Shown here piece after piece: positions 7,928-12,273 of a stretch of 64,000 nucleotides of DNA. The first letter of the stretch is position 1, and every line of letters begins with the position of its first letter. The translations under genes and the position numbers were made by a program. Source of the stretch: Alphaproteobacteria bacterium (GTDB lineage Bacteria > Pseudomonadota > Alphaproteobacteria > CAAHEQ01 > UBA3637); assembly GCA_017962565.1 (NCBI GenBank), contig JAGCVC010000020.1, positions 68,622 to 132,621 on the forward strand, in the 5' to 3' direction. Below the pieces are notes generated by a model. It ran no database searches and had not been told where the DNA came from. It was given only the letters and a program-made list of their open reading frames with translations.

Positions 7928-8014
7928 GCCTCTGTGGCGGAATTGGTAGACGCGATAGACTCAAAATCTGTTGCTCGCAAGAGCGTGCTGGTTCAAGTCC
8001 GGCCAGGGGTACCA
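7928..8014 (+). tRNA. tRNA-Leu (anticodon CAA)
   Basis: Folded by hand. Acceptor stem GCCTCTG/CAGGGGT with G-U pairs, D-arm, anticodon loop CTCAAAA (CAA), long variable arm GCTCGCAAGAGCG typical of Leu. T-arm GCTGG-TTCAAGT-CCGGC, discriminator A, encoded CCA. Confidence 0.85.
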
Positions 8015-8061
8015 AATCTAACAACCGTTCCGATTGGGACGGTTTTTTATTGTTTTGCAAG
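8009..8061. repeat. att-like direct repeat copy 1: tRNA-Leu 3' end plus terminator
   Basis: 53 bp, GTACCAAATCTAACAACCGTTCCGATTGGGACGGTTTTTTATTGTTTTGCAAG. It recurs with 2 mismatches at 10180..10234. Confidence 0.8.
8021..8055 (+). terminator. rho-independent terminator of tRNA-Leu
   Basis: AACCGTTCC-GATT-GGGACGGTT 9-bp stem with tetraloop, followed by TTTTTATTGTTTT. Confidence 0.6.
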
Positions 8062-8272
8062 CATTTGAGCGAGTTCGATAACTCCCCCTTTTTAAAGGCG
8101 CCATTTCCGTAAATTATCGAACTTTTGGGATGCTGTTTCTTTATAAAACAATCACTTATAATGAGTTCAAGTCTGGCCAGCCCCAGAAACGAATTTTAAT
8201 TAATTTATTATTGACCAAGGAATCATAATTAAGTAGGATATATAAAAAGTACACAAATGTAGTGAGAAAGAA

Positions 8273-9112
8273 ATGACAAAAAGAAAATTATTTATTCCTG
8301 AAGGATATGAAGAAGATTATATCCGACACATACGACAAGAATCCAAGTACATACAAAGAAAATCACAGTTTGCAGAAGCAGAAATTCCACCTCTTGTTCC
8401 TAAATGGAAACCAACTCTAATGATGTATAATATAACAGATGAGATACAAGAAAAAAACAAACAAAGACATAGCCTTTATGACAAAATAGGTTTTTATGTG
8501 TTCCTTTTTATCTCTTTGATTATAATATATAAGGGACTATGTACAGCTAAAGGATTTTCATCTTTTATTGGAATTCTTTTACATAGAGCTTTCATTTGTT
8601 TAATTTTCGTTGGAGGACCTGTGGGTGCCATTCTATCCATTAAAACAGGTGTTGATAAACGTATTGAAAAATACAACAGACATTTAGAGGCATGGAAATA
8701 TTGGTATGAATTATATCCTCGGAAAAAAGTGATTTCTTATTGGAAAGATTTATCTGGATATAAGTTTGAAAAAGAACTTGCACAAATTTTTATTAAAAAT
8801 GGGTTTGATACTGAAATAACAAAAAAAAGTGGAGATGGTGGAGTAGACATTATACTCAATCCCAAAGGAGAAAAGATTTACATACAATGTAAAGCGTACA
8901 AAACACGTGCCGGTGTGGCTGTTGTCAGAGAGCTTTTAGGATGTATGGAATTAAACAATGTTGAATATGGTATCGTAGCCTGTACAGGAGGCTTTACGAA
9001 AGGAGCTATCGAAGCAGCACTAATGGCACACATTACTTTGTTGGATTCAAGCGATATTGTAAAGTTGATGGATAAAGACATACCATTGGATTATTTCTAT
9101 AGAAAAGAGTAA
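8273..9112 (+). CDS. membrane-anchored Mrr-family restriction endonuclease-like protein (Mrr_cat PD-(D/E)xK domain)
   Basis: 279 aa. N-terminal about 70 aa soluble region, two predicted TM helices (IGFYVFLFISLIIIYKGL; FIGILLHRAFICLIFVGGPVGAILSI). C-terminal domain has hallmark Mrr_cat motifs FEKELAQIF..., SGDGGVDII, IYIQCKAYK, GFTKGAIEAA. Confidence 0.75.
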   Translation: MTKRKLFIPEGYEEDYIRHIRQESKYIQRKSQFAEAEIPPLVPKWKPTLMMYNITDEIQEKNKQRHSLYDKIGFYVFLFISLIIIYKGLCTAKGFSSFIGILLHRAFICLIFVGGPVGAILSIKTGVDKRIEKYNRHLEAWKYWYELYPRKKVISYWKDLSGYKFEKELAQIFIKNGFDTEITKKSGDGGVDIILNPKGEKIYIQCKAYKTRAGVAVVRELLGCMELNNVEYGIVACTGGFTKGAIEAALMAHITLLDSSDIVKLMDKDIPLDYFYRKE

Positions 9113-9224
9113 CTTCTTTAATTCTTATTTTCTTGATTTTCTTGCCATAATATGATACAGTTCAGATATTAAAAATAGAAAAACATTTTCAAAATTTTAG
9201 TTAAAAAGAAATGAAGGATTTAAT

Positions 9225-10061
9225 ATGGCTAGTTATTCAGAATTAAATAGTAAATATTTCATAGATAATAAGGCATTTAATTGTCCCTTTTGTGGTTTAA
9301 GAAATACTACTTATACTATATTAGCAATTTTAAAGTATGATTTAAATAAAAACAAGTCTGCTAAAGTTATTTTTGTCCGCTGCAATAGATGTGGAAAAGT
9401 ATCCATTCATTTTGCTTCTTGTGATATACAAACTTCATGGGGAAAAGATGCACTTGGTGTTATCAAAGGTTTCAGTGGTTCTTCTGTGTGGATTAATACA
9501 TTGAATAATATCGATTTTTTAAATTCTAAAAATGATGATAGCGAATTTGATATCGATATAGATTCTAAAATATATCACAGTATTCCCTCTTCATCTTTTA
9601 CAATGGATGAACGAATCCCCAGGAATTTAAGAGATCTTTTTGATGAAGCTCAAGAATGCAAAAAAGCAAATTTAAAGACAGGAGCATCAGCTTGTTTAAG
9701 AAAATTAGTTTATACTTTGTTATCAGATCAGCTAAATAAAAAGCATAAAAAGACGAAGCAATCAATAAAAGATTTAGGCTACGAACATTATTCTGATTGT
9801 ATTAAAGCCTTAAAAGAATATCATCCTAATTTAAGCGTTTTTATCGCCCCTCTAGAAGGTATTACAGGTATAACTAGCGACCAAGTGCATGAAGATTCAT
9901 GGGCTGAAATATCATCACAAGATTTGGGCATTTGCTTAGAAGCTATGAGGGATTTATTAAACCAGATATATGTTCAACCTGCTATCTTGAAAGAAAGAGA
10001 AAACAAAATACGTGAAATGAGTAAGAAAGCATCCACTAAAAAAAAGAGTACGGATAAATAA
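9225..10061 (+). CDS. hypothetical protein with N-terminal Cys4 zinc ribbon and C-terminal DUF4145-like helical domain
   Basis: 278 aa. CPFCG...(26 aa)...CNRCG zinc-ribbon spacing. The C-terminal region (LFDEAQECKKANLKTGASACLRKLVYTLLSD ... GITSDQVHED ... EAMRDLLNQIY) resembles DUF4145 as I recall it, unverified. 112 bp downstream of the Mrr-like gene on the same strand. Confidence 0.5.
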   Translation: MASYSELNSKYFIDNKAFNCPFCGLRNTTYTILAILKYDLNKNKSAKVIFVRCNRCGKVSIHFASCDIQTSWGKDALGVIKGFSGSSVWINTLNNIDFLNSKNDDSEFDIDIDSKIYHSIPSSSFTMDERIPRNLRDLFDEAQECKKANLKTGASACLRKLVYTLLSDQLNKKHKKTKQSIKDLGYEHYSDCIKALKEYHPNLSVFIAPLEGITGITSDQVHEDSWAEISSQDLGICLEAMRDLLNQIYVQPAILKERENKIREMSKKASTKKKSTDK

Positions 10062-10125: not shown

Positions 10126-10150
10126 TACCAACTTTTTGAAATCGTCCGGA

Positions 10151-10234
10151 TGTTTGGCTCGGTATTCGTTAAGCATGCTGTACCAAATTTAACAACCGTT
10201 CCGATTGGGACGGTTGTTTTATTGTTTTGCAAGG
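10151..10234. repeat. att-like direct repeat copy 2 (29-nt prefix plus 55-nt tRNA 3' end/terminator copy)
   Basis: 10180..10234 matches 8009..8061 with 2 mismatches and includes the terminator hairpin. The prefix TGTTTGGCTCGGTATTCGTTAAGCATGCT is shared with the copy at 10904. Confidence 0.8.
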
Positions 10235-10254: not shown

Positions 10255-10812
10255 TTATCTTCCGGAACGACAAAAGATTGCAACATTATGGAATAATTTA
10301 CACCCTCTGTGATTTTTCCCTAGATTTCTTATTTCTCCAATCGTTGTTTGAGAACCTTCCTTCATATTAAAAAGATCTAATGAAACATCCGGACAATCCA
10401 TGCATAAAATAGCAATTCCTTCTGCTGTTTCGGGATTACCATCTAAATCTAAATATAAATCGGCGTATCGATGAGATAATATTTGGGTTGGTTTAATAGG
10501 CAAATTTCCTACTTTTCCGCTGATAGATAAAGTTTCCTTAATAAGCATATTTGTGTACTTTTTACCACCACTACCGTACAAAGCATTTTTATCTGTAAAA
10601 TTACCTTCACCGCTTATAGAGCCTTTTGCATTAAAAGAAAATGGTGCGATTGATGTCCCATCAACTTCATCAGCTTTTATATACGTTTCTTTTTTGATAA
10701 TGCGAACAGAGGTATTATCTTTTCTTTCATCTACTTTTTCCCATGCGTTTACATTGAATAAAGCAGAAAAAATCGTCATTCCTAAAATCAATTGTTTTAA
10801 TTCTTTTTTCAT
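10255..10812 (-). CDS. hypothetical secreted protein (ORFan)
   Basis: Track ORF 10255..10929. Start moved to MKKELKQLILGMTIFSALFNVNA (signal-peptide-like) at 10810-10812 so the gene does not overlap the repeat at 10904-10950. Cys-rich C-terminus. No recognised family. Confidence 0.5.
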   Translation of the reverse strand: MKKELKQLILGMTIFSALFNVNAWEKVDERKDNTSVRIIKKETYIKADEVDGTSIAPFSFNAKGSISGEGNFTDKNALYGSGGKKYTNMLIKETLSISGKVGNLPIKPTQILSHRYADLYLDLDGNPETAEGIAILCMDCPDVSLDLFNMKEGSQTTIGEIRNLGKNHRGCKLFHNVAIFCRSGR

Positions 10813-10903
10813 CTTTAAACCTTCTTTTATGTGTTTCGAGAGCATCATTCTAGCATATTTTATTTTTTTGTCAAGATTTTTTACAAGTGTAAAGTATTCC
10901 GTG

Positions 10904-10950
10904 TGTTTGGCTCGGTATTCGCAAAGCACGCCGTACCAAATTTAACAACC
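10904..10950. repeat. att-like direct repeat copy 3
   Basis: TGTTTGGCTCGGTATTCGCAAAGCACGCCGTACCAAATTTAACAACC: 47 nt matching 10151..10197 with about 5 mismatches. Lacks the terminator-hairpin part. Confidence 0.7.
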
Positions 10951-11057: not shown

Positions 11058-12236
11058 ATGGCTACATTAAAAACCAAAGTTTTAAACATTGAATTTGAAA
11101 ATCCTTTTTTATTATCATCTGCGCCACCAACCGCACGCATAGATAGTATTGATAAAGCTTTTGAACTCGGTTGGGGCGGTGCCGTACTTAAAACGATTAC
11201 TCCGGATAATTTGGAAATGATAGAAGCCAGCCCGCGTTATGCTGCGTGGAAATTAAACGGTAAAGTATATGGTTTTGAAAACATCGAATTACTGAGTCAT
11301 TTAACTGTTCAAGAATGGTTGGATGGTATTGCTTATCTTAAAGCTAAACATCCTAAAAAAGTAATCATCGCCAGTATTATGGCTCCGGTTATCAAAGAAG
11401 AGTGGCAAAAACTTGTTAAAACTTTAAACAATACATCAATTGATGCCTTTGAGTTAAACTTTTCTTGTCCTCATGGCATGCCGGAAAAAGGCATCGGCAT
11501 GGCAATTGGAACAGATCCTGAAATATCGGCAAACATTACAAAATGGGTAAAACAAGTAGCTCAAAAGCCTGTATTTGTAAAGCTTTCTCCGAATGTTTCA
11601 AACATTAGCAAAATTGCTCAGGCTGTGATAGATGCAAATGCCGATGGCTTATCTGCGATAAACACTGTACAATCAATAATGGGAGTGGATTTAGATACCT
11701 TGGAACCACAACCAAATGTCAATGGAACATCTACTTTTGGCGGATATTCCGGTATAGCCATAAAGCCAATCGGTCTAAGATGCGTTGCTCAAATAAGGCA
11801 AACAACGGACAAACCGATTTTAGGAATGGGCGGAGTATCAAATTGGCATGATGCTGCCGAATATATAGCTATTGGTGCAGATGTTGTTCAAGTTTGTACC
11901 GAAGTTATGATAAACGGCTATGAAATTATAAAACCTATGTGCGATGGATTACTCAATTATTTAGAAAGCAAAGGTTTTAACTCTCCAAATGACATAAAAA
12001 ACAAGGCATTTGTCAAACTGACATCTCATGAAAAATTGAAAAAGATGCATACATGCCACCCAGATATAAATGATGAAAAGTGCTTGAAATGTGGTAAATG
12101 CGTTTCTATTTGTGCAGAACAAGAACATAGTGCTCTGCACTTGGAAGATCGCAGTGTAAAAGTTGACATGGAAAAATGTGTGGGTTGCTCGCTTTGTTCG
12201 ATTGTCTGTACTCGTGGCGCAATTAAAATGAAGTAG
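11058..12236 (+). CDS. dihydroorotate dehydrogenase-family flavoprotein with two C-terminal 4Fe-4S ferredoxin motifs (PreA-like dihydropyrimidine dehydrogenase subunit)
   Basis: 392 aa. TIM-barrel DHOD/DHPD-like N-terminal body (GGAVLKTIT, FELNFSCPHG, GGVSNWHDAAEYIAIGA). C-terminal CLKCGKCVSIC and CVGCSLCSIVC clusters. GGAG SD 8 nt upstream. Confidence 0.75.
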   Translation: MATLKTKVLNIEFENPFLLSSAPPTARIDSIDKAFELGWGGAVLKTITPDNLEMIEASPRYAAWKLNGKVYGFENIELLSHLTVQEWLDGIAYLKAKHPKKVIIASIMAPVIKEEWQKLVKTLNNTSIDAFELNFSCPHGMPEKGIGMAIGTDPEISANITKWVKQVAQKPVFVKLSPNVSNISKIAQAVIDANADGLSAINTVQSIMGVDLDTLEPQPNVNGTSTFGGYSGIAIKPIGLRCVAQIRQTTDKPILGMGGVSNWHDAAEYIAIGADVVQVCTEVMINGYEIIKPMCDGLLNYLESKGFNSPNDIKNKAFVKLTSHEKLKKMHTCHPDINDEKCLKCGKCVSICAEQEHSALHLEDRSVKVDMEKCVGCSLCSIVCTRGAIKMK

Positions 12237-12255: not shown

Positions 12256-12273
12256 GTACCAAATTTAACAACC
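12256..12273. repeat. att-like direct repeat copy 4 (core only)
   Basis: GTACCAAATTTAACAACC, identical to the core of copies 2 and 3, located 20 nt after the preA-like stop. Confidence 0.55.

Follow-up and report, generated by a model that had tools for sequence, protein, structure and literature searches.

Do two adjacent genes on a small tRNA-associated islet constitute a new two-gene defence system, or have two independent genes come to lie side by side? The question is raised by a 64-kb stretch of an uncultured alphaproteobacterium (64,000 nucleotides (nt) of contig JAGCVC010000020.1, hereafter the window), in which gene 1, encoding a predicted membrane-anchored Mrr-type nuclease, is followed on the same strand and after a spacer of 112 nt by gene 2, encoding a zinc-ribbon protein. 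This arrangement of the two open reading frames (ORFs) had been correctly noted in a preliminary description of the DNA, which went further and interpreted the pair as a conserved two-gene module of a kind not yet described among defence systems. We consider it likely that the pair instead reflects the chance juxtaposition of two stand-alone candidate defence genes—gene 2 being RAZR-like and gene 1 belonging to a transmembrane (TM)-Mrr kind—on a small cassette, devoid of an integrase, that would have inserted at the 3′ end of a tRNA-Leu(CAA) gene. The functional independence of gene 1 and gene 2 is the best-supported claim of our analysis, and we regard it as highly probable. Instead of a new two-gene system, the locus is thus a small tRNA-linked islet of candidate defence genes, one a new RAZR variant and the other of the TM-Mrr kind.

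Relatives of the two genes occur in unrelated contexts

To judge whether the two genes belong together, we compared the genomic contexts of their respective relatives. For gene 2, a scan of species-representative genomes with a 23-member alignment returned 62 loci from very diverse phyla, to which we added six distinct metagenomic contexts. For gene 1, the sample comprised 80 metagenomic loci, of which 44 extend for 1 kb or more downstream, along with two further metagenomic and two plasmid contexts. The searches behaved as desired in controls: both family hidden Markov models (HMMs) recovered the genes of the window, and the Mrr HMM additionally found generic Mrr_cat proteins.

Throughout this sample, the pair did not recur; gene 1 and gene 2 were neighbours in this one species only. 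The gene-1/Mrr HMM matched not a single ORF within ~7 kb in the 62 genomic loci of gene-2 relatives, and no Mrr gene was present in the six metagenomic contexts. Conversely, none of the 80 metagenomic loci of gene-1 relatives yielded an ORF of the gene-2 family or one resembling RAZR, even with the cutoff relaxed to E ≤ 1; gene 2 was absent from the two further metagenomic contexts, in agreement with tblastn; and neither of the two plasmid-borne gene-1 relatives had a gene-2-like neighbour. Even the nearest relatives of each gene (57–68% identity) were already unlinked and resided in different contexts. The notion of a conserved two-gene module is thus not borne out by any of the relatives' loci examined; a lack of co-occurrence in other genomes had been named beforehand as one half of what would speak against it. 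The value of this finding is mainly corrective: while adjacency on an islet suggested a new two-gene system, broad sampling of contexts resolved it into two unlinked genes, each of which is like a described single-gene defence.

Four of the six metagenomic contexts of gene-2 relatives lay inside type I restriction-modification (R-M) operons, where the gene has hsdM or hsdR on one side and hsdS on the other; the remaining two were surrounded by housekeeping genes. Type I R-M operons also accounted for ~9 of the 62 genomic loci, with ~50 not adjoining R-M genes. A Pfam census of the 110 nearest neighbours of gene-2 relatives had R-M and defence families at its head, namely HsdM/N6_Mtase, ResIII, Fic, N6_N4_Mtase, EcoRI methylase, TdeIII, and SIR2_2, the rest being housekeeping singletons. 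As a potential hidden partner, we considered the small ORFs (140–175 amino acids (aa)) directly upstream of many gene-2 relatives; in an all-against-all BLAST, however, these proved mutually unrelated. Since the immediately upstream ORFs are heterogeneous, gene 2 appears to have no conserved partner. Gene-1 relatives, in turn, were found beside RelB/YoeB and a type I R-M system on Butyrivibrio plasmid pCY186, and beside AbiEi/AbiEii on V. cholerae plasmid pNDM-116-14. A further relative (39% identity) sits in a defence/mobile island (L016 490–8656) together with AbiH, a serine recombinase, DUF2924, ThsB_TIR, and an AAA_11/AAA_12 helicase with DUF2726.

Some small neighbours did recur within sub-clades of the gene-2 family, none of them being conserved family-wide. 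Two alphaproteobacterial R-M operons share a 164–171-aa protein (L004 5473–5988 and L076 6494–6988; 87% identical), to which an ORF of the same length near another gene-2 relative (L011 5477–5992) was unrelated by BLAST, and an ORF of ~66 aa precedes the gene-2 relative in five loci of the Candidate Phyla Radiation (CPR; L047, L049, L051, L055, and L074). In one metagenome-assembled genome of a rumen proteobacterium (RUG13362), only the first 59 residues of a gene-2 relative, corresponding to the zinc ribbon, are present between hsdM and hsdS (L076 7001–7177; 61% identity). This ribbon-only copy appears to be a truncated or decayed gene-2 relative in a type I R-M operon.

Gene 1 encodes an intact Mrr_cat domain behind two predicted transmembrane helices

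Residues 159–266 of gene 1 match the Pfam family Mrr_cat (PF04471) with an E-value of 1e-27 (97 bits against a cutoff of 21) and contain the two motifs, SGDGGVDII and IQCKAYK, on which the nuclease assignment had originally been based. E166, E168, D188, D192, and Q205-C-K207 do not vary in an alignment of 13 relatives, which shows the PD-(D/E)xK site (D188/D192/Q205-x-K207) to be intact. Ahead of this domain, an N-terminal head (residues ~1–70) precedes two hydrophobic segments (~72–90 and ~95–123 in the hydropathy profile) that constitute two predicted TM helices. The AlphaFold2 model (predicted local distance difference test score, pLDDT, of 80) contains long helices at 56–91 and 95–120, a juxtamembrane helix, and the alpha/beta nuclease domain; together with hydropathy, it supports the head of ~70 aa and the two TM helices proposed earlier. 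The K/R-rich flanks of the helices suggest that both termini are cytoplasmic, with the membrane part forming an N-in/C-in hairpin.

The architecture of head, TM helices, and Mrr domain is recurrent: in 37 of the 80 metagenomic loci, the match to the family profile starts no later than position 30 and hence includes the head and TM part. Given its recurrence in environmental metagenomes, this family could serve to test membrane tethering as a means against incoming DNA. As for described proteins, gene 1 resembles Epona, a cassette of the Vibrio cholerae superintegron that is reported to be a single-gene anti-phage system with an Mrr_cat and a two-TM domain, the latter described as a holin domain (bioRxiv 10.1101/2024.07.02.601686). 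The resemblance is one of architecture only—Mrr_cat and two TM helices in one gene—and gene 1 differs in carrying an additional conserved head of ~70 aa and the juxtamembrane helix; its 44 sequence matches included no Vibrio chromosomal protein. With this report, the Mrr_cat plus two-TM plan can no longer be called undescribed in defence. PADLOC profiles matched gene 1 in its nuclease domain, namely the candidate PDC-S02 (E = 2.4e-14), the Mrr-like domain of ZorD (E = 6.5e-12), and, weakly, mREase_IV. The likeness to PDC-S02 and ZorD is confined to the C-terminal nuclease part of these profiles, while the head and TM helices of gene 1 are unmatched.

The nearest solved folds to the nuclease domain identified by Foldseek are AF1548, MspJI, and AspBHI, the latter two being modification-dependent. 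This raises another interpretation, in which gene 1 would be an ordinary modification-dependent (type IV) restriction enzyme akin to Mrr and MspJI that is incidentally anchored in the membrane and to which gene 2 is irrelevant. Consistent with this, gene 1 shares with the Mrr, MspJI, and AspBHI enzymes the catalytic fold and the D...(Q/E)xK motif, the Mrr_cat match is strong and accompanied by the mREase_IV matches, and no methyltransferase would be needed, no cognate one having been detected in the window. However, enzymes of this type possess an N-terminal DNA- or modification-reading domain, whereas neither an Mrr_N winged helix nor an SRA-like or other such domain was found in gene 1 by Pfam, hydropathy, or the structural model, and its N-terminus consists of the head and two TM helices instead. 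Moreover, Lamassu, Avs, and Zorya (in ZorD) also employ Mrr_cat, there as an effector without specificity. We thus deem a conventional type IV enzyme possible, albeit on balance unlikely.

Our preferred interpretation of gene 1, for which we see the scales as evenly poised, is that the N-in/C-in hairpin would tether a catalytically active DNase of the Mrr type to the inner membrane. In this role gene 1 would most likely act alone, as reported for Epona. It might attack DNA at the envelope, be it incoming or modified, or operate as a membrane-gated suicide nuclease, the host chromosome being a further possible target.

Gene 2 as a remote homolog of RAZR

The preliminary description had portrayed gene 2 as a Cys4 zinc ribbon fused to a DUF4145-like helical domain. 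As to the ribbon, C20, C23, C53, and C56 are invariant in the alignment of close relatives and present in 43, 43, 46, and 46 of 47 wider relatives, respectively, that is, in every ungapped sequence. The structural model comprises a three-stranded ribbon (residues 28–65), a long and partly disordered linker (66–128), and a four-helix HEPN/DUF4145-like domain (133–275). Conserved motifs of gene 2 are EA (141–142), GASAC-RK (153–160), and TSxxxHE (217–223), which in close relatives read DERIP..R.L..EA, GASAC-RK-IY, and GITSDQVHE.SW; the signature of the clade is I-[QH]-x-[LIM]-T-S-x-x-[VL]-H-E. Within the 47 relatives, R159 is conserved in 46, K160 and H222 in 45 each, and S218 and E223 in 43 each. 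The clade comprises 346 clusters at 50% identity among 1.84 billion representatives, and the family ranges across Proteobacteria, CPR, Acidobacteriota, Chloroflexota, and Melainabacteria; a tblastn search of curated records of phages and plasmids with gene 2 found nothing.

When gene 2 was compared with Pfam, NCBIfam, and, as a single sequence, the PDB, nothing beyond generic zinc-ribbon noise was returned, and DUF4145 matched just four of the 47 wider relatives at sub-threshold level (best E = 0.019). It took PADLOC and a profile broadened to 47 members to reveal a link to RAZR. The PADLOC profile for PD-T7-4 matches gene 2 (E = 2.2e-6) and is the sole defence profile to recur in the family (19 of 47 relatives). 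The best PDB match of the 47-member profile is the RAZR chain 9y9c_OA, determined by cryo-electron microscopy and labelled "DUF4145 domain-containing protein" (E = 0.003). This match is collinear, with the ribbon aligning to the ribbon (RAZR residues 11–57) and the helical domain to the HEPN domain, and hhalign of the same profile against the RAZR segments gave a probability of 91% (E = 1e-6). Judged from these profile comparisons, remote homology of gene 2 to RAZR, including its DUF4145/HEPN domain, is supported. With these PADLOC, PDB-profile, and hhalign links, the earlier guess of a zinc ribbon plus a DUF4145-like domain was essentially right, although a Pfam call for the latter is absent.

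RAZR (ring-activated zinc-finger RNase; formerly PD-T7-4) stems from E. coli UMB1727 (PDB 9Y9C), and its mechanism has been characterised: the zinc ribbon senses phage protein rings rather than nucleic acid, and R146 and H154 form a catalytic pair (R146-x7-H154), both residues being required for defence (PMC13017515). The combination of zinc ribbon and DUF4145/HEPN domain is hence also a described defence architecture and, given what the RAZR ribbon senses, the nucleic-acid-sensing role initially attributed to the ribbon of gene 2 is unsupported. Like RAZR, gene 2 is a single polypeptide with an N-terminal Cys4 zinc ribbon and a C-terminal DUF4145-type HEPN domain; H222 falls on the catalytic H154 and R159 on the Arg of RAZR helix 2, and the EA motif is conserved. 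By genomic inference, gene 2 likewise stands alone, with no conserved partner and in association with mobile elements. The two proteins differ, however, in that R146 falls on the non-conserved G212 of gene 2, with T-S-x3-H-E in place of R-x7-H. Furthermore, gene 2 encodes the longer protein (278 aa compared with 219 aa of the RAZR chain) with the longer linker (~60 aa compared with 14 aa), and its family is often embedded in type I R-M operons and misses the Pfam DUF4145 family.

If the analogy to RAZR holds, the N-terminal Cys4 zinc ribbon of gene 2 would bind a phage-made protein assembly, the ensuing rearrangement of the oligomer would turn on the C-terminal HEPN/DUF4145 domain, and this domain would cleave RNA and so arrest the infected cell (abortive infection). 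We advance this sensor–effector interpretation tentatively, with slightly less than even confidence, the missing Arg being its main caveat.

DUF4145 HEPN domains have previously been noted to be fused to zinc ribbons and to be located in R-M operons (Anantharaman et al. 2013, PMC3710099). The gene-2 relatives share with that family both the embedding in R-M operons and the loss of motif, yet they form a distinct, tighter clade below the Pfam DUF4145 threshold. Conceivably, though we think it doubtful, the gene-2 family is a distinct, Arg-less offshoot of RAZR with a T-S-x3-H-E site and a helix-2 R159–K160 pair, which would either employ a non-canonical HEPN chemistry or act as a sensor/adaptor, possibly cooperating in trans with type I R-M. 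If true, it would represent a new mechanistic variant of zinc-ribbon/HEPN immunity, more than another RAZR. The clade has kept the catalytic His and lost the Arg that RAZR requires; as it is widely distributed and has entered type I R-M operons time and again, it provides a natural test case for the divergence of HEPN active sites and for the back-up of restriction.

Weighing the interpretation of the locus

Several observations count against the interpretation of the locus as two independent candidate defence genes. An Arg 4–10 residues upstream of the His is absent in 43 of the 47 gene-2 relatives, and since this residue is essential in RAZR, the RNase activity of the clade is uncertain. The gathering threshold of Pfam DUF4145 (PF13643) was not reached by gene 2 or by any of its 23 close relatives. 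Environmental metagenome neighbours of the gene-1 family show little enrichment for defence and are mostly non-defence genes, and many contigs that carry relatives are short, limiting the neighbourhood that was checked. Both genes are kept in all six same-species contigs; these derive from near-identical strains and their retention therefore carries little information. Lastly, the two genes share a strand, only 112 nt separate them, and no terminator-like site was seen in this spacer, so they may be co-transcribed here. Co-transcription and same-species retention say nothing, however, about a functional coupling of gene 1 and gene 2.

The loss of the HEPN Arg essential in RAZR would also fit a different scenario, in which gene 2 is not an RNase of abortive infection but a catalytically altered or inactive HEPN protein serving as an accessory or regulator of R-M—for instance, a Lar-like zinc-ribbon modulator of type I enzymes—that is an orphan in this genome. 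In agreement with this scenario, type I R-M operons enclose the gene in four of the six close metagenomic contexts and in ~9 of the 62 genomic loci, and the ribbon has sub-threshold matches to Lar_restr_allev in 21 of the 47 relatives. Yet such zinc-ribbon profile matches are generic, and the majority of the genomic loci (~50 of 62) are not beside R-M genes. The presence of S218, H222, E223, R159, and K160, each in at least 43 of 47 members, further argues that an active site has been maintained, and HEPN domains that lack the Arg or the whole motif have precedents: ~20% of DUF4145 members are without the conserved Rx4–6H motif, and the separate HEPN family c2405 keeps the His and lacks the Arg (PMC3710099). 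An R-M accessory is an unlikely role for gene 2, though one to be reckoned with.

Alternatively, neither gene might be defensive, the two being decaying cargo of an old mobile element or housekeeping genes. While the cassette is devoid of an integrase and the metagenomic neighbours of the gene-1 family are predominantly unrelated to defence, both ORFs are intact with fully conserved catalytic and structural motifs, both families are patchily distributed across distant phyla with recurring R-M, toxin–antitoxin, and abortive infection contexts, and gene 2 has a homolog that is a validated defence protein, making this alternative very unlikely. Rather, both genes are probably defence-related, and an abortive-infection-like role, as had been suggested for the pair, is plausible. 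Least probable of all, and hardly to be expected, is a genuine lineage-specific two-gene system in which the RAZR-like protein senses infection and activates or licenses the membrane-tethered Mrr nuclease, or the reverse: the shared strand and short spacing without an intervening terminator, a shared terminator after gene 2, and the location on one repeat-bounded cassette that all same-species contigs retain with both genes would suit it, but it is disfavoured by zero co-occurrence in ~150 independent loci of either gene's relatives despite functioning controls, by the unlinked state of even the closest relatives, by the fact that each architecture is known or reported as a single gene, and by a promoter-like site in the spacer.

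A cassette array at the 3′ end of tRNA-Leu

The gene pair coincides with a dip in GC content from ~0.41 to ~0.30. To its left, 258 nt upstream of gene 1, lies the sole tRNA gene of the 64-kb window, tRNA-Leu(CAA). The tRNA-associated islet with direct repeats that had been recognised from the sequence was evident in our analysis as well, with the repeats R1 and R2 on either side of the pair being ~95% identical (Table 1). The window contains exactly four copies of an 18-nt core, GTACCAAAT[CT]TAACAACC, which begins with the last 6 nt of the tRNA gene. All four have the same orientation (starting at 8009, 10180, 10933, and 12256), with 0 copies expected by chance. Given these four copies, the gene pair represents one cassette of a tandem array. 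The cores delimit three cassettes: the first contains gene 1 and gene 2, the second a minus-strand ORF of 197 aa, and the third a PreA-like DHO_dh/4Fe-4S gene. We had considered R1 and R2 as a simple attL/attR pair, which was ruled out by the fourth copy after the PreA-like gene.

Table 1. Positions of the gene pair, repeats, and associated features in the window
Feature	Position	Strand	Remarks
tRNA-Leu(CAA)	7928–8014	+	ARAGORN; last 6 nt (GTACCA) are the start of the repeat core
Repeat copy R1	8009–8061	+	tRNA 3′ end, terminator hairpin 8023–8044, and TTTTATTGTTTTGCAAG; left boundary of the gene 1 + gene 2 cassette
Isolated tRNA-Leu T-arm copy	8165–8180	+	15/16 nt match to 7991–8006; probably left behind by an earlier integration
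Promoter-like site upstream of gene 1	8211–8239	+	TTGACC-17-TAGGAT; 9/12 matches, consensus match only
Gene 1	8273–9112	+	279-aa ORF
Weak promoter-like site in 112-nt spacer	9142–9170	+	TTGCCA-17-GATATT
Gene 2	9225–10061	+	278-aa ORF, RAZR/PD-T7-4-like
Repeat copy R2	10180–10233	+	Includes terminator hairpin 10191–10218, likely the terminator of gene 2; right boundary of the gene 1 + gene 2 cassette
197-aa ORF	10255–10848	−	Second cassette; signal-peptide-like N-terminus MKKELKQLILGMTIFSALFNVNA
Repeat core copy R3	10933–10950	+	18-nt core
PreA-like DHO_dh/4Fe-4S gene	11058–12236		Third repeat-bounded cassette
Repeat core copy R4	12256–12273	+	Just after the PreA-like gene

This array is most simply read as the product of successive site-specific integrations, at the tRNA-Leu 3′ end, of small elements that lack an integrase. 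Such a series of events is inferred, no empty-site variant having been found: the six same-species contigs, retrieved via the flanking PreA-like protein, all have the same arrangement. The array would neatly illustrate how a tRNA hotspot, here that of an uncultured alphaproteobacterium, gains elements one after another. The remaining 59 ORFs of the window yielded no integrase, no R-M system and, as had been stated before, no methyltransferase; these 59 ORFs are housekeeping genes. PADLOC matches to RTasPolA, mad3, mad8, and PtuA in the window were taken for cross-matches of housekeeping proteins of the PolA and ATPase type rather than for defence genes.

Relatives of both genes are often found near tRNA genes, too. 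These include a tRNA-Ala ~750 nt upstream of one gene-2 relative, a tRNA-Ser near another, a tRNA-Met just upstream of an R-M operon with a gene-2 relative, and a tRNA-Glu ~420 nt upstream of a gene-1 relative (tRNA positions: L012 5180–5254, L001 4071–4159, L007 2891–2967, and L014 483–557). This proximity fits carriage on tRNA-targeting islets.

Within the array, the 35 nt to the left of R2 (10145–10179) and of R3 (10898–10932) are 88% identical, and their minus strands encode similar peptide starts, MLNEYRAKHPDD... and (V)LCEYRAKHTEY...; the shared stretches may be a common element end or the remnant of a duplicated small gene. The 197-aa ORF of the second cassette had no match in Pfam, PADLOC, or NCBIfam, and its mechanically called version is 224 aa long, extending to 10929 and thereby entering the repeat region. 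Beyond the PreA-like gene, a sulfatase-family gene (PF00884; 12391–14022) has a very low GC content of 0.28–0.34, which suggests that the low-GC, possibly acquired region may reach to ~14 kb.

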